Shown here one piece after another: positions 4,482-48,116 of a stretch of 64,000 nucleotides of DNA. The stretch lies in NCBI GenBank assembly GCA_045645165.1, contig JAZRIF010000212.1, positions 7,807 to 71,806 on the forward strand, in the 5' to 3' direction. The notes beneath the pieces are model-generated. The model worked only from the letters and a program-made list of their open reading frames with translations. It was not told where the DNA came from and made no database searches. Source of the DNA: Eubacteriales bacterium. GTDB lineage: Bacteria > Bacillota > Clostridia > Oscillospirales > CAG-272. Within the stretch, counting starts at the first letter, position 1. Every line of letters starts with the position of its first letter. Position numbers and translations under genes: made by a program.

Positions 4482-6533
4482 TTACTCAGCGTCGGTTGCC
4501 TCAACCTCTACGGTCTCCTCAACGGTCTCAGCGGCCTTAGCCTCCTCGATGAGGGCGCGGATGGACAGGCTGACCTTCCGGTTCTCGTTGTCGATGTCGA
4601 TGATTCTGGCATCAACGGTCTGACCAACCTCCAGAATGTCGGCAGGCTTGCCGATCTTGTGATCAGCGATCTGAGAAATGTGGATCAGGCCGTCCACACC
4701 GTCAACGATCTCAGCAAATGCGCCGAAGGGCATCAGGTTAACGATCTTAACGGATGCGGTATCACCCACAGCGTACTGAGAGGTGAAGATGAACCAAGGA
4801 TTAGTAGCCTCGGTCTTGTAGCCCAGGGAGATGCGCTTCTTCTCTGCGTCGTAGCTCTTAACGAATACGGTGATCTCGTCGCCAATTGCCAGAACCTCTG
4901 CGGGAGACTTGATGCGCTTCCAGGACAGCTCAGTGCAGTGAACCATACCGTCCACACCGCCCAGGTCGACGAATGCGCCGTAGCTGGTCATGGACTTAAC
5001 GGTACCGGTGTAGATCTTACCTTCCTCGATCTCCTCCCAGAAAGACTTCTCCTGAGCGCGCTTCTGATCGCGGAGGACGAGACGGATAGAGCCCTTAGCT
5101 CTCTTCTTCTCACCGATCTCCAGGATGCGGAGAGTCACGGTCTGGCCGACCAGGGTGGAGAGATCGCCCTCACGGGGAATACCGGTGTGGGCTGCGGGGA
5201 TGAATACGCGGTTGTCGAAGCAGATAGCCTCAACGCCGCCCTTGTTAACGGAAATGACCTTACCCTCAATGTTCTCGCCGTTCTCGTAAGCAGCGACAAC
5301 CTTGAGCCAGTTCTTGTCGGAATCGACACGCTTCTTGGAGAGCTCAGCGAAGCCGTCGCGGTCGCTGACACGGATCACGAATGCCTCCACCTCATCTCCG
5401 ATTTTGAACATCTCGCTGAGTTTTGCGGAAGGATCATCGGTGATCTGCTCAAGCTTGATCACGCCGGTAACTTTGGCGCCGAGGTCAAGCTGGATCTCGC
5501 CTGCGCTAATGCTGGTAATAATACCGGTCACAGTGTCTCCTGTATTTAATGTCTTGAGGGAATCCTCAAGCAGTTCCGCGAAGTTTTCGTTTTGGATCTC
5601 GCTCATGTTGTTTGTTACCTCCTCAATAATGTCGTGGGGGGTTGATGCCCCTGCCACGATGCCTACCCGCTGGTAGGCTAACGGAATCTCCTTTGGCAAT
5701 TCGTCGGCTTGCTCGACCCACACGGTGTCAGCACAAATGCTCTTACAGATCGAATAGAGTTTGGCAGAATTAGAACTGTCTCTGCCACCAATCACAATGA
5801 CGTGATCGCATTTGCGTGCGAGCTCTGCGGCCTCTTTTTGCCTAGAGTCCGTAATACTGCAAATTGTATCATAAATATATGGACTGGGATAGTTTAAATT
5901 GTAAATTTTTTTTGTCTTTTCCCATTCTATCAAATTCTGTGTGGTTTGAGCCACCAGAATCGGGGTTACGGAGGGATCATTCGGCGCCCTTTGGTTCCGA
6001 ATCATGTACTCGGCCTCGGCGGCATTTCGGAACACTACCTTCACACCGTCAAAGCGGCTCAAAAAGCCCACGACCTCAGGGTGATCGGCAGAACCCAAAA
6101 CCGCGAGGAATCGGTCGTGCTTCCCTGTTTCCCGCAAGGCCTTTTGGTTCAGCTCGTTCTGTTCTGCGCAGATTCTGTGGATCTTTTTGACGAAGGAGCA
6201 GGTACAATCCACAAAGGAAAAAGACGGATATGCCTCGGCGCAACGGCGCAACAAATCTTCGGTTTCGACCGTCATACCGTGGGCGCGAACAAACACCTTG
6301 ACGGGCGCTTCGGCGGTTGATTCGCGCGCCAACCGCTCGACATCATCTGCTGAAATGACGCGTACACCCTGCGAGGCAAGACGCTGATTATACGTCTCGT
6401 TATGGATAAGACGGCCCAAGGTATAGATACGCTCACCTTGCGGGCACGCCGCGATCTCCCGCTCAACGGCAGAGGTCGCGCGGGCGACACCGAAGCAAAA
6501 GCCTGCGTTTTTGGCTACGATGATCTCACGCAT
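4482..6533 (-). CDS. ispH: Bifunctional 4-hydroxy-3-methylbut-2-enyl diphosphate reductase (IspH/LytB) fused to ribosomal protein S1-type S1 domains
   Basis: MREIIVAKNAGFCFGV... is a LytB N-terminus; the C-terminal half has 4 S1 repeats (e.g. GTVKSMTSYGAFVDLGGVDGMVHCTELS). I prefer the ATG at 6533 (1 nt after the plsC stop) over the track's TTG at 6563. Confidence 0.9.
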   Translation of the reverse strand: MREIIVAKNAGFCFGVARATSAVEREIAACPQGERIYTLGRLIHNETYNQRLASQGVRVISADDVERLARESTAEAPVKVFVRAHGMTVETEDLLRRCAEAYPSFSFVDCTCSFVKKIHRICAEQNELNQKALRETGKHDRFLAVLGSADHPEVVGFLSRFDGVKVVFRNAAEAEYMIRNQRAPNDPSVTPILVAQTTQNLIEWEKTKKIYNLNYPSPYIYDTICSITDSRQKEAAELARKCDHVIVIGGRDSSNSAKLYSICKSICADTVWVEQADELPKEIPLAYQRVGIVAGASTPHDIIEEVTNNMSEIQNENFAELLEDSLKTLNTGDTVTGIITSISAGEIQLDLGAKVTGVIKLEQITDDPSAKLSEMFKIGDEVEAFVIRVSDRDGFAELSKKRVDSDKNWLKVVAAYENGENIEGKVISVNKGGVEAICFDNRVFIPAAHTGIPREGDLSTLVGQTVTLRILEIGEKKRAKGSIRLVLRDQKRAQEKSFWEEIEEGKIYTGTVKSMTSYGAFVDLGGVDGMVHCTELSWKRIKSPAEVLAIGDEITVFVKSYDAEKKRISLGYKTEATNPWFIFTSQYAVGDTASVKIVNLMPFGAFAEIVDGVDGLIHISQIADHKIGKPADILEVGQTVDARIIDIDNENRKVSLSIRALIEEAKAAETVEETVEVEATDAE

Positions 6534-11187: not shown

Positions 11188-13218
11188 TTAAAGCATGATT
11201 TCGATATATGCGGCGCAATTCCCTTCGGGGAATCTGACGGTCAGGTATCCGTCGTTCAGCGAGCAGGCATAGCCTGCGAGATCGGGATAGGTGCGGATCA
11301 CGGTGGCATCATCCGAAACGTAGGGAGTCAGGTCGATCACGGTTTCTCTCTCCTCCGTGTTGATCTGCCAAACGGCCAGGAGAAGCTTCCCTGCCTCGCG
11401 GTTCACAAGGCCCAGGGCGGTATGTCCCTCATGGCTCATACGGGAGAGTCCCATGGGGTATACGGGAATCGATCGAGCCAGAATATCGCGGTTCTCCTTA
11501 TAGATGGAGATCGCGTCGGCGATCAGCTTGCGGTTCAGTTCGTCGGCGTAGCAGATGCGACCCGACAGGTACATGGCGCCCATCATGCCGTTGACCATAT
11601 TGAAAGCGGTCTGATTACCGTCAGCACAGCTTTCCACGGTGGCCTTGACGTTGTCTCCCACCACGGGATACACATCTCCCTGCTCGGGCATTTGGTGGAA
11701 GTCCACGGGGTAGGGGTACGCCCAGATACCCGCCCGCTCGGGAGGCATGCAAGCCACCATGCCCTGGATGATGGAGGGGTAGCGGTCGTAGTATTCCTGG
11801 TCGCTGGTGGATTGGATGTGGAAATGGGACAGGGTGGTGTGGTCGCACCGCATGGCACCCGATCCGCAGTTTTCGATCATGAGGCCGGGATGGGTGGAGA
11901 TCACCTCGTCAACGAAATCATAGAATGCTTCGGTATGTTCCCGCAGAGCTTCGGCCATGGATTCGTCGGCGCCCTCCAAGGGGTCGATGCCGATGCCCGT
12001 GGAGTGATTGTAGTCGTTCTTGATGAAGCGCACACCCATATCGTACAGGTCGTCGAAGACCTTCATGAGGTGCTTCCGTACGACGGGCTTGCGGAAATCC
12101 ACGAAGCATTGACCGCGGCCGATGGGATGACCGTGGCGGGTCAGGAGGGCTTCGGGGTGGGCCTTGGCAAAGTCGGAATTTGCATCGGCGGTCTCGATCT
12201 CCAGCCACACGCCGGGGAGCATGCCATGAAGTGCAATGTCGTCCAGAATCCCTTGCAGGCCGCCATCGCCGAACAGCTCGTCGTAGGGCTGCCAATCGCC
12301 GTTGTGCTTATACCACTCGCCCCGCTTACCGAACCAGCCTGCGTCGATGCAGAACACCTCACAACCTGCCTCGGAGGCCGCCTTGATCAGGGGCATGAGA
12401 CGGTCACGGGAGGGCTGAGCCCACAGGCAGTTCATGTAGTCGTTGAAGCATACGGGGGTGTGTCCCATGGGGAAATCGGTATGATACGTAGTCCGCTTGC
12501 AGGCGGTCAGTTCGGCGATCGCTTCCTCAAAGCCACCCTTAACACAGCCGTACAGGGCAGGAGCGGCGGTATAGGTCTCACCGGGGGCCAGGATCTTATA
12601 CCAACCTCCGTTCTTCTCGAAAGCGGCTGACATCATGACGCAGAGAGCGGAATTTTCCTTATAGCCCTTGGCGCTGACCTCTATGTACCAGTTAGAGCCC
12701 GTAAGAATTTCAAAATAGTGGGTCTCCTCCGTTTCGGTATCCTCGATGAGGATCATGGGGTAGTGGCGGAAGGTGGTCCAACTTCCCTGGGAGTAGAGAC
12801 GGAATGTGGTCTGGTGGCCGTGATTATAGGTGGGATAAAGTCCCAGCTCCTCAATATCGGCGTGGCGCCATTGGCCTTCGCCCTGCCAGACCGAGTGGGC
12901 GTAGTGAATGACGAAGCGATGATCATACCATTTCTTCCCTTCGGCTCCGATACCCGTCATAAATGCGGAGGACAGACAATCCAGAAGAAGGGGCTCGGCG
13001 CCGTCGTTGCGGATGGACGTGGTCAGACGGGTGGCGCCGTCAAAGAGCTCGCGGGACTCGGTAACGGTGGCGTTGTGACCCGCCAGTTTCCAGACGGTAT
13101 TGCCGCTTTTTCCGTCCCCCGATACCAGCTCGGCGCGGTCATTCGCCACGTCGTCGTTGTGGTAGGGGGCACAGCTCTCGGCGTTGAAATTGAGGTAAAA
13201 AGCAGGTGTGACAGACAT
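11188..13218 (-). CDS. GH36-family alpha-galactosidase-like glycoside hydrolase
   Basis: CFNDYMNCLW, FCIDAGWF, GVWLEIE, VRFIKNDYN and IENCGSGAMRCD follow the GH36 catalytic-barrel pattern. Start set at the ATG at 13218 (RBS aaggaga, 7-nt spacing), 2 nt after the upstream stop. Confidence 0.8.
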   Translation of the reverse strand: MSVTPAFYLNFNAESCAPYHNDDVANDRAELVSGDGKSGNTVWKLAGHNATVTESRELFDGATRLTTSIRNDGAEPLLLDCLSSAFMTGIGAEGKKWYDHRFVIHYAHSVWQGEGQWRHADIEELGLYPTYNHGHQTTFRLYSQGSWTTFRHYPMILIEDTETEETHYFEILTGSNWYIEVSAKGYKENSALCVMMSAAFEKNGGWYKILAPGETYTAAPALYGCVKGGFEEAIAELTACKRTTYHTDFPMGHTPVCFNDYMNCLWAQPSRDRLMPLIKAASEAGCEVFCIDAGWFGKRGEWYKHNGDWQPYDELFGDGGLQGILDDIALHGMLPGVWLEIETADANSDFAKAHPEALLTRHGHPIGRGQCFVDFRKPVVRKHLMKVFDDLYDMGVRFIKNDYNHSTGIGIDPLEGADESMAEALREHTEAFYDFVDEVISTHPGLMIENCGSGAMRCDHTTLSHFHIQSTSDQEYYDRYPSIIQGMVACMPPERAGIWAYPYPVDFHQMPEQGDVYPVVGDNVKATVESCADGNQTAFNMVNGMMGAMYLSGRICYADELNRKLIADAISIYKENRDILARSIPVYPMGLSRMSHEGHTALGLVNREAGKLLLAVWQINTEERETVIDLTPYVSDDATVIRTYPDLAGYACSLNDGYLTVRFPEGNCAAYIEIML

Positions 13219-42218: not shown

Positions 42219-42737
42219 ATGACCCAGTATACCTTGGATGAATACGCCGCTTTCCTGACAAAAACCTTTGCTCCCCGTTTCCCGCGTGACAACCGTCCTC
42301 GTGCTGTCACGGACACCACCGAAAAAGGAGAGGATGTGCTGGAGTTCATCCTGCCCCACCCCGCCGACGGGCGGTTCTCGGCATCCCTGACGGTCAGCAC
42401 CGCCCGCGGATACGTGACCACCTGTGCCTTGCGGTTCGGGCAGGCTGAGGTCGCCTCCGCCCTGTCCCCCGAGGATGCCCCGGCCGCCATCAAGGAGATC
42501 ATTGATGACCGCATCATAGCCATCGTACGCTACAAGAATCAAGAAGCCTACGACAACAGCCGCAAGGCGCCCAGCCCCTCGGAATGGCTCTACCAGATCC
42601 CCGACGACGAGGCCGAACTGAACCGTATGCTGGAAAGACTCCAAAGACCCGCAGGCTTCATGGAAAAGCTTGGCGGCACGTACATAGGCGTTTTCGAGCT
42701 CTACCGCTGGAGCGGCAGCCAAACCATAGCGCGATAA
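42219..42737 (+). CDS. Hypothetical cytoplasmic protein (172 aa)
   Basis: Start at the ATG at 42219 (RBS aaaggagg, 7-nt spacing). No recognisable motif. The opposite-strand ORF 42174..42746 looks like its shadow. Confidence 0.6.
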   Translation: MTQYTLDEYAAFLTKTFAPRFPRDNRPRAVTDTTEKGEDVLEFILPHPADGRFSASLTVSTARGYVTTCALRFGQAEVASALSPEDAPAAIKEIIDDRIIAIVRYKNQEAYDNSRKAPSPSEWLYQIPDDEAELNRMLERLQRPAGFMEKLGGTYIGVFELYRWSGSQTIAR

Positions 42738-42772
42738 AACCACCAACGAAACACACGGAAAGGAAATATGTT

Positions 42773-45607
42773 ATGAAACCAAACTTCAAACGTACCGTCA
42801 TTGCACTCCTCTGTTCCTCCCTGTTGGGAGGCGCCATTGCGCTTTCGGGCTGCGCGCAAGCCGTAAGAAAAGACGAAACCGATATGTTGAATTCCCCTTC
42901 CTATTCTTTTGATCTGTTGTCTGCGGAAAAGCCCCAAGTAAACACCACCCTTCCCATCGGGTACATGGATCTGACCACCCACTACGGTTTTGCGGGGCCC
43001 GGTAACGTGGAATATGAGGTGACCGAGGGCTCCCACACCACCTTCACCGCCACCGCCGACGATCCCCTGCTCAACCTCTACACCCCCGAGTTCAAGCCCT
43101 CGGAGTGCAAGTCGGTGGCCATCATCTACCGCACCGACATGGACAAGGACGGCGAGCTGTACTGCAACCGCTCCGACGGCGTGCAGATGGGTCAGAAGGG
43201 TGGTATCCAGGTCTGGCGCTGGATCCCCACCAAGGAATTTGCCAAGATGGCCGTGGTCTGCGACGCCTGGAAGGACTGCGACGAGAGTGTGACCTTCACA
43301 GGCTGGCGCTTTGACCCCCTGAACCCCAGAATCAACCCCGGTGATTCCATTGACATCCGCTGTATTGCCTTCTTCGACACCGAGGACGGTGCGGAGGGCT
43401 TCAACTACGATGAATACAAAAAGCTTCTCGATTGGGAGAAACAAAACCCCGACAACGCTGAACCAGAAGAGGAGGAGACCGGTATGACCGTCGATTGGAC
43501 AGATCCCGCATACAAGGACATGGAGACCACCCTCGAGGACACCCGCGAAGGATCTCTGACCTTCACCGAGTCCGAGGACGGCAAGACTGTGACGATCTCC
43601 TATAAGGTAGGTGACGAGACCAAGTCCTTCACCGTCCCTAACGACCCCATCTACCGTTTCGGCGGATATGCCGGCACCGACGATCTCGGCCGTTCGCTCT
43701 ATGATGCAACCGAGGTCGGTGTCATCGGAGATAAGGGCGAGCATTACGTGGGTATGTTCTATTTCCTCTGGCACGGCAAGCATGCCCCCACCGACAAGAT
43801 CTACAATCTGCAGGAGATCCTGGACTCCACCCCCGATGCCGACAAGGGTAAGCTCTCCACCGGCAAGTACGGTAAACCCGGTGAGTTCCACTGGTTCGGC
43901 GAGCCCCTCTACGGCTACTACTACATCAACGACGAGTGGGTGCTCCGCAAGCACATGGAGCTGCTCACCAACGCAGGGGTAGATTTCCTGTTCTTCGACA
44001 CCACCAATAACCACACCCATGCGGATACGGCTCTGAAGATCATGAAGATCCTCCACGAGATGAACGAGCAGGGCTATAACGCCCCCGGCGTTGTGTTCTA
44101 CACCAACACCAACGCACACACCATGGTCAAGAATCTCTACTCCGAGATCTACGCCCAAAACCGCTACCCCGACACGTGGTTCTGTATTGATGGCAAGCCC
44201 GTCATGATCGGCCCTGCCGACGCCAATATTGACGATTTCTTTACCATGAAAATCAACCAATGGCCTACCGAGGAAAAGAATCACATCGACGCATGGCCTT
44301 GGATGGACGGTAAGCGTCCCCAGTATATCTACAAGGACGGCGAGGGCAAAAAGTCTGCCATCAACGTCTCGGTAGCTCAGCACCGCAACACCTGGCGCTT
44401 CAGTGATTCCATCTACGATATGATGGATCGCGGCAATCTTGGCCGTTCCTACGGCGCCGCTAAGCTCACCGATAAGCTGACCGAGGAATACTACAATGCC
44501 ATCGCCGCCGATCCCGAGCTGTACAAACAGGGCCTCAACTTCCAGGCTCAGTGGGACGTAGCTCACAAGGCAGACGTTCCCTTCGTGCTGGTCACGGGCT
44601 GGAACGAGTGGATCGCCCAGAGACAGTCCACCTCCAACGAGTACGCCCATTTCGTAGATCTGGCATCCGTGGAATTCTCCCGCGACATCGAAATGATGAA
44701 GGGCGGCTACTTCGACAACTACTACATGCAGTTCGCCTCCAACATCCAGAAGTACAAAGGTGCGGCTCCCATCATTCTGCAGGATGCCCGCAATCCCATC
44801 AACGTCACGGGCGGCTTTGACCAGTGGGATGCCGTCACCGTCACCTACACCGATTATACAAAGGACTGCCGCGACCGCGACTTCAACGGCTACGGCAATC
44901 AGGTCTACACCGACACCACCGGCCGCAACGATCTGGCCGCCTTCAAGATCACCCATGATACGAAAAACGTATACTTCTACGCAGAGGCTCGCTTCGATAT
45001 CTCCAAGCCCGATACAGATTCCTCCTGGATGCAGCTCTTTATCGACGCCGATCAGAACGTAGAGACGGGCTGGTACGGCTACGACTACATCGTCAACTAC
45101 TCCGCCAAGGATGAGTTCACCACCACCGTGGCCAAGTACAACGGCACCGACAACGCCTTCTCCTTCGAGGTGATCGGTGAGGTCTCCTACCGCGTCAAGG
45201 GCAATCGGATGATGATCGAAGTCCCCCTGGAGATGCTGGGTGTGACTCACCCCGATTACATGAACTTCCACTTCAAGTGGGTGGACAGCGATTCCAAGAT
45301 GACCACCATGGAGCAGTTCTACACCGAGGGCGACGTTGCTCCTCTGGGACGCTTGAATTACGTATTCAACACCGTCATGCCCGGCAGCGTGCCTCCCGCA
45401 GAGGATGAGACCGAAGCTTCCACCAACGGGGAAACCGGTTCTGTGAGCGAGCCGGTTACCAATGAGACTGCCGCTACGACCGGGACTGAAACCGAAACCG
45501 ATGGCAAAGATTCCAAGGGTTGCGGCTCGGTGCTTCCCTCTTTGGTTCTGCCCCTCGCCCTGGCAAGCGGCGCGGCTTTGACCGTGAAGCGCAAGAAGGA
45601 AGATTAA
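42773..45607 (+). CDS. Large lipoprotein with TIM-barrel glycoside-hydrolase-like core (GH99/GH71-like pattern, tentative) and C-terminal beta-sandwich plus hydrophobic anchor
   Basis: Start at the ATG at 42773 (RBS ggaaagga). Lipobox IALSGC. FYFLWHG...GEPLYGYYYINDEWVLRKHMELLTNAGVDFLFFDTTN. C-terminal GCGSVLPSLVLPLALASGAALTVKRKKED. Confidence 0.75.
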   Translation: MKPNFKRTVIALLCSSLLGGAIALSGCAQAVRKDETDMLNSPSYSFDLLSAEKPQVNTTLPIGYMDLTTHYGFAGPGNVEYEVTEGSHTTFTATADDPLLNLYTPEFKPSECKSVAIIYRTDMDKDGELYCNRSDGVQMGQKGGIQVWRWIPTKEFAKMAVVCDAWKDCDESVTFTGWRFDPLNPRINPGDSIDIRCIAFFDTEDGAEGFNYDEYKKLLDWEKQNPDNAEPEEEETGMTVDWTDPAYKDMETTLEDTREGSLTFTESEDGKTVTISYKVGDETKSFTVPNDPIYRFGGYAGTDDLGRSLYDATEVGVIGDKGEHYVGMFYFLWHGKHAPTDKIYNLQEILDSTPDADKGKLSTGKYGKPGEFHWFGEPLYGYYYINDEWVLRKHMELLTNAGVDFLFFDTTNNHTHADTALKIMKILHEMNEQGYNAPGVVFYTNTNAHTMVKNLYSEIYAQNRYPDTWFCIDGKPVMIGPADANIDDFFTMKINQWPTEEKNHIDAWPWMDGKRPQYIYKDGEGKKSAINVSVAQHRNTWRFSDSIYDMMDRGNLGRSYGAAKLTDKLTEEYYNAIAADPELYKQGLNFQAQWDVAHKADVPFVLVTGWNEWIAQRQSTSNEYAHFVDLASVEFSRDIEMMKGGYFDNYYMQFASNIQKYKGAAPIILQDARNPINVTGGFDQWDAVTVTYTDYTKDCRDRDFNGYGNQVYTDTTGRNDLAAFKITHDTKNVYFYAEARFDISKPDTDSSWMQLFIDADQNVETGWYGYDYIVNYSAKDEFTTTVAKYNGTDNAFSFEVIGEVSYRVKGNRMMIEVPLEMLGVTHPDYMNFHFKWVDSDSKMTTMEQFYTEGDVAPLGRLNYVFNTVMPGSVPPAEDETEASTNGETGSVSEPVTNETAATTGTETETDGKDSKGCGSVLPSLVLPLALASGAALTVKRKKED

Positions 45608-45630
45608 TTGCAACAAGTATAACTACGAAA

Positions 45631-45670
45631 CAAAAAGCGGCTGTCCTACAAAGGGCAGTCGCTTTTGTTT
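45631..45670 (+). terminator. Rho-independent terminator after the lipoprotein gene
   Basis: AGCGGCTGTCC-tacaaa-GGGCAGTCGCT (G-U pairs allowed), followed by tttgttt. Confidence 0.7.
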
Positions 45671-45701
45671 GGGAAGAAATTTCAAATTGGGGTTTGTCTA
45701 T

Positions 45702-45754
45702 GCCTTCTCCAGCGGAGAAGGGGGACCATCCGAAGGATGGTGGATGAGGAGAGC
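45702..45754 (+). repeat. REP-like two-hairpin element, copy 1
   Basis: gCCTTCTCCagcGGAGAAGGgggACCATCCgaaGGATGGTggatgaggagagc. Confidence 0.8.
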
Positions 45755-45888
45755 ATTTGTAGGCTAACTTACCTGGTGTTCACTCAACCTCCCTATCTTT
45801 TACTGGCACAAAGAATGGCAAAAAACTCAACTGTTGCCCATAAAGTTGTAGGATAGTTGCCTCACATCCGAATGGTTGCCCTTCATCC

Positions 45889-45954
45889 GCTCTCCTCATC
45901 CACCGCTGCGCGGTCCCCCTTCCCCGCTGGGGAAGGCCGCCGAGCAAGCTCGGC
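45889..45954 (-). repeat. REP-like two-hairpin element, copy 2 (inverted relative to copy 1), plus an adjacent third hairpin
   Basis: Minus strand: GCCGAGCttGCTCGGC gCCTTCCCCagcGGGGAAGGgggACCGCgcaGCGGTggatgaggagagc. It lies directly 3' of the minus-strand gene ending at 45976. Confidence 0.8.
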
Positions 45955-45975
45955 AAGGGAGCGATAAACCCAAAT

Positions 45976-46524
45976 TTACCGTTCCCTCCGTCGCGCATTG
46001 GCCGCCAGGTCGTTCTGATGGATCTTTCGGCTTCGGAGCAGAGTCAGAACGCACAGGACAACAGCGGCGTACACGAAGCCCACCACCGAACGGAGAACGG
46101 GCACGGGAATCAGCCCGCTGAAGGGGCCTAAGGCAAACAGGCACGCGGTTGCAATGGGATTGGGTGTAGGACTGGGGAAAATAAAGCAGGAGATTTCGAT
46201 AGCGACAGTGGCGAGAGCGTAAATAGCCAGAATAAATTTTCCGTCGGCACGGAAAAATCCCAGCAGCTCCTGCTTCATGTCAACCTTGTCGGTATGTACA
46301 ACGTAGGTACTGATGCGGGGAAACATGTGAAACCGATAGAAAAAGACTGCGTAGCAAGCCATGGTCAGAACGTACATGATGGAGTCTCGGATAAGCCGGC
46401 TCTCAAATTCCATCAGCACAGCCGCGAGGATGATCGAGAAGACGAGAAGCATACCGAAGCACGCCAGGGATGTCTTGACGACGTCCCATAAACAAGTCAG
46501 CCACAGATTCTTTGACTTTGCCAT
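45976..46524 (-). CDS. Hypothetical 4-5 TM membrane protein
   Basis: 182 aa, with RBS aggagg upstream of the ATG at 46524 and a perfect sigma-A promoter upstream. Confidence 0.7.
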   Translation of the reverse strand: MAKSKNLWLTCLWDVVKTSLACFGMLLVFSIILAAVLMEFESRLIRDSIMYVLTMACYAVFFYRFHMFPRISTYVVHTDKVDMKQELLGFFRADGKFILAIYALATVAIEISCFIFPSPTPNPIATACLFALGPFSGLIPVPVLRSVVGFVYAAVVLCVLTLLRSRKIHQNDLAANARRRER

Positions 46525-46728: not shown

Positions 46729-46802
46729 ATAAGTTGGATTATTATGTATCACTATGCCGTCTGCAAATCTTTTGCAAACCGGAGGAAAGGAGCCCCGAAA
46801 GC

Positions 46803-48116
46803 ATGGTCAGAATCACCTCCGTCACCCCTCACAGCCGCGCCGAAAGGCACGGAATCCTGGCGGGAGACATCCTCATATCCATCAACAGCCGCGAGGTCAC
46901 CGACGTACTGGATTACCGCTTCTTCCTCACCGCCACCGAAGTTAAGCTGGCGCTTGAGCGGGACGGCACCCCCTTCGAGGTCACCATCCGCAAGCGGGAG
47001 TACGACGATATCGGTCTGGACTTCGAGACTCCCCTCATGGACAAGAAGCACTCCTGCGAGAACAAGTGCATCTTCTGCTTCATCGACCAGCTTCCCAAAG
47101 GGATGCGGGAAACCCTGTACTTTAAGGACGACGACAGCCGCCTGTCCTTCCTCCACGGCAACTTCATCACCATGACCAACCTCCGAGACAAGGACATCGA
47201 CCGCATCATCGAGATGCACATCTCCCCCGTTAACGTCTCGGTGCATACCACCAACCCCGAGCTGCGGGTGAAGATGATGCACAACAAACGGGCGGGACTG
47301 GTGCTGGATTACCTCCCCCGACTGGCCGAGGCGGGCATCACCCTGTGCGGACAGCTGGTTCTTTGCCGCGGCATCAACGACGGCGAGGAATTGGATCGCT
47401 CCATGCGTGACCTCTACGCCCTGGGCGACGCTATGGAGAGCGTGTCCATCGTCCCCGCGGGTCTGACCAAGCATCGGGACAAGCTTTATCCCCTGACTAC
47501 CTACACCCCCGAGGAGGCCGCCGCCGTGATACGGCAGGTAGAGGCCTTCGCGGAGAAGTGTCTGGTCGAGTGTGGCTCCCGCAAGTTCTTCTGCGCCGAT
47601 GAGCTGTACCTCAAGGCGGGGCTCCCCCTCCCCACCGAGGACTACTACGAGGGTTATGCCCAGATCGAGAACGGCGTGGGGATGATCACTTCCCTGCTCA
47701 CCGAGTTCGACGACGAGATGAACTTTCTCGACGAGTATCTGCCCGACTACAAGGCCCCCCGTACCGTATCGGTTTGCACGGGTGTGGCCGCCTACCCCAC
47801 CGTCTGTGCCATGGCCGCCCGCTTGGAAGCTGTGGTGGAGGGACTGACCATCCACGTCTACGAGATCATCAACCACTTTTTCGGCGAATCCGTCACCGTG
47901 GCGGGACTGCTGACAGGCCAGGATATGTACAAGCAGCTTGCAGGCAAAGAGCTGGGGGATGAGCTCATCATTCCCGAGAACACCCTCCGCGCCGACGAGG
48001 CCATGTTCCTCGACGATATGACCCCCGCCGAGTTGTCCGAAAAACTGAATGTGCCCATCCGCGCGGGTAAGAATAACGGTGCGGAGTTTATCCGCGAGAT
48101 GTTAGGCATCGAATAA
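46803..48116 (+). CDS. PDZ + DUF512 protein with CxxxCxxC (radical-SAM-like) motif
   Basis: Start at the ATG at 46803 (MVRITSVTP...). PDZ-like N-terminus; SCENKCIFCFIDQLPKGMR; LSFLHGNFITMTNL. It occupies the conserved position upstream of der. Confidence 0.85.
   Translation: MVRITSVTPHSRAERHGILAGDILISINSREVTDVLDYRFFLTATEVKLALERDGTPFEVTIRKREYDDIGLDFETPLMDKKHSCENKCIFCFIDQLPKGMRETLYFKDDDSRLSFLHGNFITMTNLRDKDIDRIIEMHISPVNVSVHTTNPELRVKMMHNKRAGLVLDYLPRLAEAGITLCGQLVLCRGINDGEELDRSMRDLYALGDAMESVSIVPAGLTKHRDKLYPLTTYTPEEAAAVIRQVEAFAEKCLVECGSRKFFCADELYLKAGLPLPTEDYYEGYAQIENGVGMITSLLTEFDDEMNFLDEYLPDYKAPRTVSVCTGVAAYPTVCAMAARLEAVVEGLTIHVYEIINHFFGESVTVAGLLTGQDMYKQLAGKELGDELIIPENTLRADEAMFLDDMTPAELSEKLNVPIRAGKNNGAEFIREMLGIE

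Follow-up and report, generated by a model that had tools for sequence, protein, structure and literature searches.

A pair of short inverted repeats in an intergenic spacer belongs to a dispersed repeat family that is strongly concentrated around genes for DUF559 (Vsr-like PD-(D/E)XK) endonucleases across many phyla. The spacer lies in a stretch of 64,000 nt, called the window below, whose own numbering is used for all window coordinates; L-numbers (L155, L204 and so on) denote loci of the searched sequence collection. The explanation we favor, with reasonable though far from complete confidence, is that the pair is a gene-less, REPIN- or MITE-like pair of single-stranded DNA (ssDNA) structural repeats on which a DUF559 nuclease probably acts in trans, the last of these steps being one that we infer.

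A gene-less insertion between two convergent genes

Positions 45684-45977 are a gene-less insertion of ~294 bp between two convergent genes, and the insertion holds a dispersed repeat in two copies that are inverted relative to each other. The upstream gene (42584-45607, + strand; stop codon 45605-45607) encodes a 1007-aa protein and lies outside the element, and the downstream gene (45976-46524, - strand; stop codon 45976-45978) encodes a 182-aa protein; neither product has a Pfam match. An exact-protein lookup of the 182-aa protein returned no record, and its relatives were found through homologues.

Direct reading of the sequence confirmed both copies, with coordinates and letters identical to those quoted in a preliminary description of this DNA. 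Copy 1 (45702-45754, + strand) consists of hairpin 1 (45703-45721; CCTTCTCC-AGC-GGAGAAGG, 8 bp with a loop of 3 nt), a GGG linker, hairpin 2 (45725-45741; ACCATCC-GAA-GGATGGT, with a GAA triloop) and a purine tail (45742-45749; GGATGAGG). Copy 2 (45889-45937, - strand) has its own hairpin 1 (45936-45918; CCTTCCCC-AGC-GGGGAAGG, 8 bp), hairpin 2 (45914-45902; ACCGC-GCA-GCGGT, with a GCA triloop) and the tail GGATGAGG (45901-45894). As had been described, hairpin 2 differs between the copies yet stays paired. A central spacer of 134 bp without an ORF (45755-45888) separates them. The third hairpin that had been noticed beside copy 2 is present at 45939-45954 (GCCGAGC-AA-GCTCGGC on the + strand), and belongs to an overlapping partial unit on the strand opposite to copy 2 (45918-45961, +), which matches the generic descriptor, uses copy 2's palindromic hairpin 1 and ends in the purine run AAGGGAG (45955-45961). 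The conserved frame shared by the copies is as first described; overlooked were the mirror logic of the tail and the ~294-bp unit as a whole.

The outer ends of the insert are inverted relative to each other, with AAATTGGGGTTTGTCTAT on the left (45684-45701, + strand) and AAATTTGGGTTTATCG on the right (45962-45977, read on the - strand), where it shares bases with the - gene's stop codon. A repeat finder paired one set of arms (45702-45727 with 45912-45937; 26 nt, 92% complementary), a second pair of arms (45739-45768 with 45875-45904; 30 nt, 80%) and an outer extension (45684-45701 with 45962-45977; 30-nt arms, 73%), giving terminal inverted repeats with arms 45684-45768 and 45875-45977 in three blocks of 73-92% complementarity. 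The junction between AAATTnnnnTTTGTCTATG and CCTTC at the outer end recurs in L185, with longer versions in L204, L216 and L229, and AAATTGGGGTTTGTCTAT is related to ATTTGCCGAACTGATAAAG, found upstream of DUF559 modules. The 16-mer GGTGGATGAGGAGAGC occurs exactly twice in the 64 kb, both times within the copies, and a scan with a generic motif showed only these two visible family copies in the window. Two other matches of that scan (164-202 and 11218-11267) were discarded, being inside long ORFs, unlike the family and at shuffle background. The 64-kb window holds no DUF559 gene.

Between the + gene and the insert lies an intrinsic, apparently bidirectional terminator (45628-45672; AAAAAGCGGCTGTCCT-ACAA-AGGGCAGTCGCTTTTGTTT; -28.4 kcal/mol, z -8.2). 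It is kept in L324, L325-L327 and L330, and in more distant syntenic relatives it is the sole feature of the spacer, the insert being absent; relatives whose 182-aa protein is 87% and 63% identical have spacers of 84 and 72 bp that hold the terminator only. Each copy had been placed in the 3' UTR of the convergent gene next to it. This holds for the - gene, whose transcript reaches the terminator only by crossing the whole element and whose 3' UTR RNA folds into a single hairpin of ~290 nt (-173.7 kcal/mol, z -10). It does not hold for the + gene, because copy 1 lies downstream of that gene's own strong terminator. Nor are the copies terminators themselves, a role that had been proposed, since they lack a T-run (hairpin 2 is followed by GGATGAGG) and a real terminator stands alongside; a terminator scan found none in them.

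L324, the nearest relative, has similar outer ends that enclose a different, palindromic insert, so the site may be a hotspot or a pre-existing hairpin and not the scene of a simple single insertion. The other relatives compared (L325-L330) lack the insert, and their spacers are too diverged for a target-site duplication or a clean empty-filled junction to be defined. Comparison of the 134-bp centre with the centres of other pairs, with DUF559 genes and with the L324 insert gave nothing significant; one weak match, to the L155 5' UTR (z 4.1), is given no weight.

A dispersed family with covarying stems

When one genome per species was scanned with an exact pattern, the family turned up at at least 120 loci. 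The 151 matches listed in collection loci and the two copies of the window make a set of 153 copies, 143 of them distinct in sequence. The suspected multi-copy intergenic hairpin repeat is real, and it ranges well beyond gut Clostridia: the matches listed come from Clostridia, Alpha-, Gamma- and Deltaproteobacteria, Acidobacteriota, Planctomycetota, Chloroflexia, Legionella, Xanthomonas, Pseudomonas and others. Several loci can come from a single assembly (L204 and L216, for example, are both from fecal_MAG_83), and copies occur singly, as inverted pairs and as tandem arrays (L214). The 5' flank of the unit varies: in Clostridia it is mostly -AG, and in Proteobacteria it shows no conservation. 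A loose pattern, GAAGG..GGATGAGGAGAG, gave 119 loci in viral contigs, 118 of which were chance matches, and was replaced by a stricter one. Searches of Rfam with the window and 16 related loci found no family at gathering score and only chance-level matches at E<=10, and literature searches for literal repeat strings returned primers and unrelated text only. The RIME/Bru-RS repeats of alphaproteobacteria may be related. In gut-bacterial genomes, such units would be a source of many spurious small ORFs as well as assembly and rearrangement breakpoints.

The extra copies found by the pattern scan covary in their stems, and the structure-preserving variation first reported for two copies is overwhelming across the family. 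The matched change in hairpin 1, originally read as a compensatory event at this locus, is real covariation but a family-wide polymorphism: the variable pair is T-A in 79, C-G in 56 and something else in 8 of the 143 distinct copies among the matches listed. All five inverted pairs of the window's subfamily that we examined (window, L204, L229, L216 and L155) combine one T-A with one C-G copy. Hairpin 2 has 118 distinct sequences among the matches listed, with 741 Watson-Crick, 9 G-T and 1 A-C pairs; within the window's subfamily it is 100% paired, one position being G-C 22 times, A-T 11 times and G-T twice. Its triloops are GNA in 71 of 77 cases, and other loops are mostly GNNA tetraloops. 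GNA triloops closed by C-G are a classic stable DNA mini-hairpin. With DNA parameters, copy 1 folds at -13.1 kcal/mol (z -4.0) and copy 2 at -13.0 kcal/mol (z -2.8).

The copies had also been taken as sense-oriented 3'-UTR elements. Family-wide, in tandem gene contexts, 30 are sense and 21 antisense by a crude ORF-based gene call. Because this call places 45 of the 153 copies 'inside' ORFs, of which many are probably spurious, we use orientation at a coarse level only; at that level there is no strong sense bias and no sign of an obligate sense element.

The sequence logic of an intrastrand DNA triplex

The order of the unit is constant: hairpin 1, made of a pyrimidine and a purine arm, is followed by hairpin 2, and behind this comes a purine tail in mirror image to the purine arm of hairpin 1. 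We scored arm against tail for the class II triads G*G.C, A*A.T and T*A.T, allowing at most one mismatch. In copy 1 the tail is the mirror of GGAGAAGG, with allowed triads at 8/8 positions, and in copy 2 at 7/8. Other subfamilies have arms and tails of other sequence, for example GGGAGAGC with TGAGAGGG, GAGGGAGG with GGAGGGAG and AAAGGAGG with GGAGGATT. Family-wide, among the matches listed, mean triad compatibility is 0.826 versus 0.703 +/- 0.007 with permuted tails, and at the base position G/G is seen 69 times and C/T 53 times. The connector from purine arm to tail is 20 nt in copy 1 and 16 nt in copy 2 and pairs with itself as a hairpin. Judged by its letters, the unit has the logic of a purine-motif (class II) intrastrand DNA triplex in which a stem-loop replaces the short second loop, and the mirror symmetry suggests that the repeat probably folds into a three-stranded structure.

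Published work on the repeats of E. coli and other Proteobacteria known as BoxC, PIT or TMECO (Holder et al. 2015, PMC4666352, citing Bachellier et al. 1999 and Hoyne & Maher 2000, 2002) provides the closest parallel. A TMECO oligonucleotide formed a stable triplex by CD and NMR, and DMS footprinting in vivo did not detect a stable triplex; RNA cannot form purine-motif triplexes (PMC4666352). TMECO copies are intergenic, have no strand bias and show neither promoter nor terminator activity, and their inverted pairs always combine two types (PMC4666352). Their loci are tied to local genomic variability, and no association with transposons, phages or plasmids was found (Holder et al. 2015, PMC4666352). 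Triplex searches have limited the loop to 1-6 nt (ITxF) or 0-10 nt (Hoyne et al.; PMC4666352); the window-type variant falls outside these limits, and earlier counts may therefore have missed it.

Repeats cluster around DUF559 endonuclease genes

In four unrelated taxa, ORFs within 40 nt of copies proved to be PF04480 (E 1e-24 to 1e-38), and two of these DUF559-adjacent loci, L155 and L212, carry the window's exact subfamily. All-against-all clustering of the 1,876 ORFs within 3 kb of copies left DUF559 as the sole recurrent, tightly adjacent family; the most widespread neighbour cluster occurs at 5 of ~120 listed loci, a median of 1.4 kb from the copy. The motif is present at 70 of 80 metagenomic DUF559 loci, with a generic-motif density of 4.06/kb within 250 bp of the 80 genes versus 0.108/kb beyond 500 bp, and at 40 IMG/VR loci the density is 1.50 versus 0.023/kb near and far from DUF559, so that repeats are 38- to 64-fold denser around these genes than in nearby DNA. 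Some 96% of copies have no adjoining DUF559 gene. We did not find the repeat-DUF559 link in the literature within reach of our search.

In 15 of 45 cases the tail precedes the DUF559 start codon by 4-9 nt, and it often serves as the gene's ribosome-binding site (Shine-Dalgarno). DUF559 genes that are 93-99% identical sit in different flanks, and the outer base of hairpin 1 is exactly where their homology stops. By the window-type pattern, CCTTCCCC-type units accompany about 12 of the L155 protein's closest relatives (L244-L254, L260, L305), and its more distant relatives have units of the CCTCCC or GCTCCC type. Structures matched by the DUF559 profile are PDB 3HRL, a DUF559 structure (E 4e-31), and PDB 3R3P, the homing endonuclease I-Bth0305I (E 5e-5); YcjD-like proteins have been tied to Vsr by profile comparison (PMC1189080).

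In E. coli, TMECO no. 9 is located 167 nt 3' of the DUF559 gene ycjD. Across a spread of 60 sampled E. coli genomes, the median number of repeat places is 18 (range 11-28) where ycjD is present and 6 (range 1-16) where it is absent, a difference of about threefold (p 2e-9, uncorrected for phylogeny) that follows phylogroups and thus reflects few independent events. Genomes that are ycjD-negative retain up to 16 copies, and K-12 has 23 repeat copies and one DUF559 gene.

How the pair may have arisen

We propose that it is as folded single-stranded DNA, formed for instance when the DNA is replicated, and not as RNA that the unit acts, and that the repeat is selfish or structural, much like a REPIN or MITE. 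The genome would encode, at another place, a DUF559 nuclease that recognises the repeat and spreads, maintains or recombines it in trans. At the window locus the pair would have no dedicated regulatory role, and a side effect would be that the 3' UTR of the - gene is lengthened into one long hairpin.

Among other explanations, an element working at the level of RNA, its copies folding in mRNA 3' UTRs as terminators or as protective or stabilising stem-loops, seems improbable to us. RNA parameters also fold both hairpins, the - gene is read through the element so that the ~290-nt hairpin could alter decay, hairpin 2 has 9 G-T against 1 A-C pairs, and upstream of DUF559 genes the unit is 5' UTR, its tail a Shine-Dalgarno sequence. 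Set against this, the unit has no T-run, the real terminator beside it is conserved where the element is absent, and copy 1 sits behind that terminator. Family copies have no strong orientation bias (30 versus 21 by the crude call), nor does TMECO have strand bias or terminator or promoter activity, and the tail's mirror-type covariation lacks a rationale in RNA, for which purine-motif triplexes are excluded (PMC4666352). The loops, too, are GNA or GNNA, not GNRA or UUCG. Still more doubtful is a classical REP/BIME that owes its mobility to a RAYT (Y1 HUH transposase), or the end of an IS200/IS605-like element. The preliminary description had offered a REP-associated protein as a possible partner, and the repeat is indeed dispersed, intergenic and palindromic, occurs in single, inverted-pair and tandem-array forms, and at some loci (L081, L121, L127, L315) adjoins GTAG-tagged hairpins. 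But the unit itself lacks the GTAG/CGTC tag, its three-block mirror architecture is foreign to REPs, and no recurrent transposase accompanies the ~150 copies: among the 1,876 ORFs within 3 kb, DUF559 is the only tight neighbour.

The association with DUF559 could be read differently if the unit were primarily a regulatory or boundary region of that gene, and solo copies and gene-less pairs were remnants decayed through gene loss or recombination, with no action of the nuclease. The tail's use as a ribosome-binding site, copies that overlap gene 3' ends (L187, E. coli ycjD) and a possible decayed DUF559 remnant between Legionella copies in L202 (a weak match, E 0.18) are in keeping with such an origin. 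We nevertheless hold it to be unlikely, as copies far exceed DUF559 genes (23 versus 1 in K-12), tandem arrays exist (L214), the centres of gene-less pairs bear no trace of DUF559 coding sequence, and solo copies keep the mirror symmetry, which implies selection on, or recent copying of, the fold itself. A passive non-B-DNA repeat, spread by host replication and repair (slippage, gene conversion or stalled-fork recombination) and merely trapping or attracting DUF559, would account for the mosaic breakpoints at hairpin 1, the different palindromic insert at the same site in L324, and the link of TMECO loci to local genomic variability with no transposon, phage or plasmid association (PMC4666352). 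It would leave unexplained why DUF559 is the sole tightly adjacent family across phyla, why subfamilies track DUF559 relatedness and how the repeat comes to contain the gene's ribosome-binding site, and we give it little credence.

A broader proposal, which we advance tentatively and regard as somewhat short of an even chance, is that the long-missing enzyme partners of bacterial intrastrand-triplex repeats, both BoxC/PIT/TMECO and the hairpin-loop variant, are the DUF559 (Vsr-like) nucleases. The BoxC/PIT/triplex repeats have been reported in E. coli since the 1990s. The three-block logic with a hairpin connector is found in Clostridia and, beyond them, in at least six or so phyla, and its repeats bracket one small uncharacterised nuclease family, which supplies a concrete candidate enzyme. 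If the proposal is right, this would be a RAYT/REPIN-like arrangement of a nuclease with its own repeats across many phyla, in which the nuclease recognises folded ssDNA, triplex plus hairpin, and copies, maintains or recombines it; gene-less inverted pairs such as the window's would be its non-autonomous dependants.

Comparison with known repeat systems

The window repeat, as far as its sequence tells, shares the architecture of BoxC/PIT/TMECO and is not of the same sequence family. Both pair a pyrimidine arm with a purine arm and add a mirrored second purine block (G*G, A*A, T*A); as families, both are intergenic, multi-copy, strain-variable and without strong strand bias, two copies being visible in the 64 kb of the window; both often form inverted pairs of two types, T-A plus C-G in the window's family; and one E. 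coli copy lies beside the DUF559 gene ycjD. The window copies do not match the TMECO consensus CCCTCNCCC N3-6 GGGNGAGGG N3 GGGNGAGGG, differing in stem (CCTTCYCC versus CCCTCNCCC) and in connector, where a second loop of 3 nt in TMECO contrasts with a covarying stem-loop of 16-20 nt in the window (up to ~30 nt in the family). Window-type repeats occur in Clostridia and many other phyla, and adjoin a gene family, whereas published work on TMECO reports no association with mobile elements or a gene family (PMC4666352).

REP/BIME and REPIN/RAYT systems likewise consist of short structured intergenic repeats that occur singly, in inverted pairs and in arrays, and, as in REPIN/RAYT, a single-copy nuclease gene has its own repeats on both sides, and genomes that lack the gene contain fewer of them. 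The window's family lacks the GTAG/CGTC tag and has a third, mirror-repeat strand, and the protein whose gene it adjoins is a PD-(D/E)XK Vsr-like DUF559 protein, not a Y1 HUH enzyme. As in a MITE, the insert is gene-less, ~294 bp long and bounded by long terminal inverted repeats, is absent from more distant syntenic relatives and has related units in other genomes; unlike a MITE, it shows no visible target-site duplication against the diverged spacers of relatives and has no known transposase-bearing parent, and the internal region is not conserved between window-type units. Finally, the DUF559 profile matches 3R3P and so recalls I-Bth0305I and Vsr, but the DUF559 genes found with these repeats are free-standing, outside introns and inteins, and their putative homing would be into a dispersed repeat and not a unique gene.

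Results

Between a plus-strand gene (42584-45607, 1007 aa) and a convergent minus-strand gene (45976-46524, 182 aa) lie two copies of a repeat, one on the plus strand at 45702-45754 and one on the minus strand at 45889-45937. The preliminary description had called them an inverted pair of two-hairpin REP-like elements, and both were read from the sequence in the same places and with identical letters, as was the 'third hairpin' beside copy 2 (45939-45954). A repeat finder paired 45702-45727 with 45912-45937 (26 nt, 92% complementary) and 45739-45768 with 45875-45904 (30 nt, 80% complementary), and also detected the 8-bp hairpin-1 stems of both copies. The window contains the 16-mer GGTGGATGAGGAGAGC two times, once in each of copies 1 and 2 and nowhere else. 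Folded with DNA parameters, each copy forms the two predicted hairpins, at -13.1 kcal/mol for copy 1 (z-score -4.0) and -13.0 kcal/mol for copy 2 (z-score -2.8). By the repeat finder the inverted repeat reaches further out, to 45684-45701 and 45962-45977, so that the whole paired unit measures ~294 bp.

This element is an insertion. Using syntenic homologues of the 182-aa protein to compare the spacer between the convergent genes, we found 368 bp in the window, 84 bp in L325-L329 (87% protein identity) and 72 bp in L330 (63% identity), the shorter spacers holding a conserved terminator and nothing else. In the closest relative, L324 (GCA_045643785.1, 98% identity), the spacer measures 204 bp; its outer ends are similar (AAATTGCAGTTT...AAACCCAAATTT) and its interior is wholly unlike the window's, an imperfect palindrome of ~130 nt built of GATACAAG-like repeats (insert at L324:3049-3254). 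Given the short spacers of L325-L330 and the different interior in L324, the site is occupied in the window/L324 lineage and its contents are changeable. The spacer comparison defined no exact junctions and no target-site duplication; the site may be a hotspot, or its outer ends may be a pre-existing hairpin whose loop takes different elements. Relatives preserve the synteny of the adjoining DUF512 radical-SAM gene (46734-48116), which in them is followed on that side by a GTPase gene (L324, L330).

Scanning one genome per species with the pattern CCTTCNCC-N3-5-GGNGAAGG-N8-38-GGATGAGGRG matched at least 120 loci across phyla, bearing out the suspicion of a multi-copy intergenic hairpin repeat; in the window and 16 related loci no Rfam family matches it. 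Among the matches listed are Clostridia, other Bacillota, Alpha-, Gamma- and Deltaproteobacteria, Acidobacteriota, Planctomycetota, Chloroflexia and others, including one Candidatus Doudnabacteria assembly and cultured isolates of Xanthomonas, Stenotrophomonas, Pseudomonas, Legionella, Maricaulis, Gemmiger formicilis and Pseudoflavonifractor. The 151 matches in listed loci and the window's two copies comprise 143 distinct sequences, and the window copies belong to a Clostridia subfamily, '...GAAGG-GGG-ACC[hairpin]GGT-GGATGAGG' (38 instances).

Stem covariation, which the preliminary description had proposed looking for in further copies, is present in both hairpins. The free position of hairpin 1 is T-A in 79 of the 143 distinct copies, C-G in 56 and otherwise in 8, and the region from hairpin 1 to the tail has 118 distinct sequences, nearly all of which fold into a perfect stem, with 741 Watson-Crick, 9 G-T and 1 A-C pairs. 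Within the window subfamily, pairing at the five basal pairs of hairpin 2 is complete (100%); at one position G-C, A-T and G-T occur 22, 11 and 2 times, and the observed score is reached by 0 of 500 shuffles. The loops of hairpin 2 differ by strand: GNA accounts for 71 of 77 three-base loops, and most four-base loops are GNNA, few GNRA. The hairpin 1 T/C-A/G change between the window's copies is a real difference and not the local compensatory event it had been taken for, since the same two types recur in every inverted pair of the subfamily inspected (window, L204, L229, L216 and L155); it is an inherited two-type arrangement.

The purine tail that ends each unit covaries with hairpin 1 across subfamilies and is always a mirror of the purine arm, never a direct copy (arm GGGAGAGC with tail TGAGAGGG, GAGGGAGG with GGAGGGAG, AAGGGAGG with GGAGGGAT, AAAGGAGG with GGAGGATT). 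A mirror repeat cannot form Watson-Crick pairs with the pyrimidine arm and matches the antiparallel requirement of a third strand. Averaged across 175 distinct instances, compatibility with purine-motif triads (G·G, A·A, T·A) comes to 0.826, against 0.703 ± 0.007 for permuted tails; at the stem base, the arm-tail combination is G with G in 69 instances and C with T in 53. Allowed triads number 8/8 in copy 1 (arm GGAGAAGG, tail GGATGAGG) and 7/8 in copy 2 (arm GGGGAAGG).

Head-to-tail arrays of the unit occur at L214:1157-1350 (a Christensenella assembly; at least four copies, 49-bp period), L212:6084-6317 (three copies adjoining a DUF559 gene) and L280:~1250-1470. GTAG-tagged GC-rich hairpins resembling classical REPs (e.g. 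tcGTAGGGGGCGACGTCCTCGACGCCCC) directly adjoin some triplex-type units (L081:~1950-1990; L121:~660-716; L127:~6120-6160; L315:~1871-1900), and the two repeat classes seem to co-cluster in gut Clostridia intergenic regions.

The units are tightly coupled, statistically and physically, to genes of DUF559 (PF04480), a Vsr-like endonuclease family. Two copies of precisely the window's subfamily stand, inverted, on either side of a 122-aa ORF in L155 (a Candidatus Avispirillum assembly), and Pfam assigns this ORF to DUF559. Such ORFs also lie within 40 nt of copies in Eubacteriales (L212), Trichlorobacter (L187) and Terriglobia (L188), the Pfam E-values running from 1e-24 to 1e-38. Among the neighbours of the ~150 copies, DUF559 is the one protein family that both recurs and lies tightly adjacent. 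In the reverse test, a generic descriptor (pyrimidine-rich 6-bp stem, any second hairpin, purine tail) was found in 70 of 80 metagenomic DUF559 loci, at 4.06/kb within 250 bp of the gene versus 0.108/kb beyond 500 bp; in 40 IMG/VR loci the densities were 1.50/kb near DUF559 versus 0.023/kb. Where copies stand on both flanks, 24 of 30 loci have them inverted. Upstream copies facing the gene end their tail 4-9 nt ahead of the start codon in 15 of 45 cases (e.g. gacGGAGGgattgccATG), so that the third-strand block there is also the Shine-Dalgarno sequence. By the window-type pattern, some 12 of the closest relatives of the L155 protein (L244-L254, L260, L305) accompany CCTTCCCC-type units, and more distant relatives accompany CCTCCC- or GCTCCC-type units with matching tails. 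Against the PDB, the DUF559 profile found 3HRL ('endonuclease-like protein', E 4e-31) and 3R3P (Vsr-like homing endonuclease I-Bth0305I, E 5e-5); YcjD-like proteins have long been assigned to the PD-(D/E)XK/Vsr fold (PMC1189080, PMC3424549).

DUF559 genes in L295, L300, L306, L315, L316 and L350 are 93-99% identical in nucleotide sequence, and their flanking DNA differs. Homology of L315 to L295 and L316 stops precisely at the hairpin 1 outer base of the downstream copy, after '...GGAGAGCCAAG', beyond which stand three different right flanks. The module's left end contains ATTTGCCGAACTGATAAAG, which resembles the outer ends of gene-less pairs (AAATTTTGATTTGTCGAACTGTTGCGAATAG before CCTTC in L229; a short form, AAATTnnnnTTTGTCTATG before CCTTC, in the window and L185), a likeness that is suggestive only. 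The 134 bp at the centre of the window's pair are not significantly similar to DUF559 modules or the other gene-less pairs compared. A 486-bp segment between the module and its upstream neighbour (L295:850-1335 versus L316:1335/1336) is present in L295, L315 and L306 and not in L316, another indel breakpoint at the module edge. In Legionella bononiensis (L202:6877-7171), a short ORF fragment that weakly matches the DUF559 N-terminus (E 0.18) lies between two inverted copies whose 30-bp outer flanks are identical; this may be a decayed full-length element.

In E. coli K-12, a degenerate unit overlaps the 3' end of the one detectable copy of ycjD, a DUF559 gene, and repeat no. 9 of the TMECO family lies 167 nt downstream on the same strand. 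The single-copy ycjD was found in 3,378 of 5,426 complete genomes. It has been placed in phylogroups A, B1 and C, with at least two independent replacements inferred (PMC12817139), in agreement with the efflux operon that we find in its place in the fabI-sapF interval of B2 strains and O157:H7. A combined ycjD and TMECO query, with genomes sampled evenly over the ranking, put the median number of repeat places at 18 (range 11-28) for 37 ycjD+ genomes versus 6 (range 1-16) in 23 ycjD- genomes (Mann-Whitney p 2e-9, uncorrected for phylogeny). Published supplementary counts agree: the listed laboratory and commensal strains of A/B1 have 19-30, B2 strains 1-2 and one O157:H7 strain 11 (PMC4666352). 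The pattern, which has few evolutionary events behind it, fits repeat decay once a maintaining enzyme is lost. The K-12 region (L331:4030-4840) also holds a second, truncated copy of the ycjD 3' end downstream (gagacggtgctggagaatattc...) with a decayed repeat, and a perfect 17-bp palindrome (TCACCTCATTCTGACAA...TTGTCAGAATGAGGTGA) sits just 5' of the start codon; these look like traces of past recombination.

Discussion

The preliminary description had placed each copy in the 3' UTR of a convergent gene and offered a terminator or transcript stabiliser as possible roles. Because a strong intrinsic terminator of the plus-strand gene (45628-45672, -28.4 kcal/mol, z -8.2) precedes copy 1, that copy is outside the gene's 3' UTR. 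The placement holds for the minus-strand gene, whose stop lies 39 nt from copy 2; lacking its own terminator, this gene has a transcript that must traverse the entire element before the shared terminator. Its 3' UTR RNA (45625-45990, minus strand) is predicted to fold, ahead of the terminator, into a single ~290-nt hairpin (-173.7 kcal/mol, z -10), which could be a substrate for a double-strand-specific RNase. With copy 1 behind a real terminator and no strong orientation bias found among units, we prefer a triplex-type structural repeat, which the element very probably is, to a terminator or UTR device. Pfam gave no match for either convergent gene; the C-terminus of the 1007-aa protein (a Thr/Glu-rich stretch, a hydrophobic segment and KRKKED) looks like a membrane anchor.

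As a structural repeat, the unit would act as single-stranded DNA, with hairpin 1 clasped by the mirror tail and hairpin 2 serving as connector. The mirror rule, the GNA/GNNA loops, the lack of strong orientation bias and the reported inability of RNA to form purine-motif triplexes (PMC4666352) argue for DNA rather than RNA. A DUF559 nuclease might recognise this fold and copy, maintain or recombine the unit in trans, as RAYTs do with REPINs, and the window element would be its gene-less dependant; that DUF559 is the enzyme of the repeat we propose tentatively. The observation is real and exceeds a generic REP-like hairpin in interest. In the literature searched, no paper ties DUF559 or ycjD to BoxC/PIT/triplex repeats, and the association makes an old question about these repeats directly testable.

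BoxC/PIT/'TMECO' repeats share the architecture of the window unit: TMECO is CCCTCNCCC-N3-6-GGGNGAGGG-N3-GGGNGAGGG. By CD and NMR, a TMECO oligonucleotide adopts a class II triplex of very high stability; in-vivo footprinting revealed no stable triplex (PMC4666352). The 23 copies in K-12 are all intergenic and without strand bias, and the five inverted pairs each join a type A to a type B without exception (PMC4666352). The repeats lack promoter and terminator activity, their loci are unusually variable between strains, and they were not found associated with transposons, phages or plasmids (PMC4666352). Whereas the TMECO connector is N3, that of the window unit is 16-20 nt and itself a hairpin, which puts it outside both the 1-6 nt loop limit of Holder et al. 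and the 0-10 nt limit of the earlier Hoyne search (PMC4666352). We therefore file the window repeat as a structural variant of the BoxC/PIT/TMECO class and do not assign it to the TMECO sequence family: the class is already known yet unexplained, and the variant with a hairpin connector is new.
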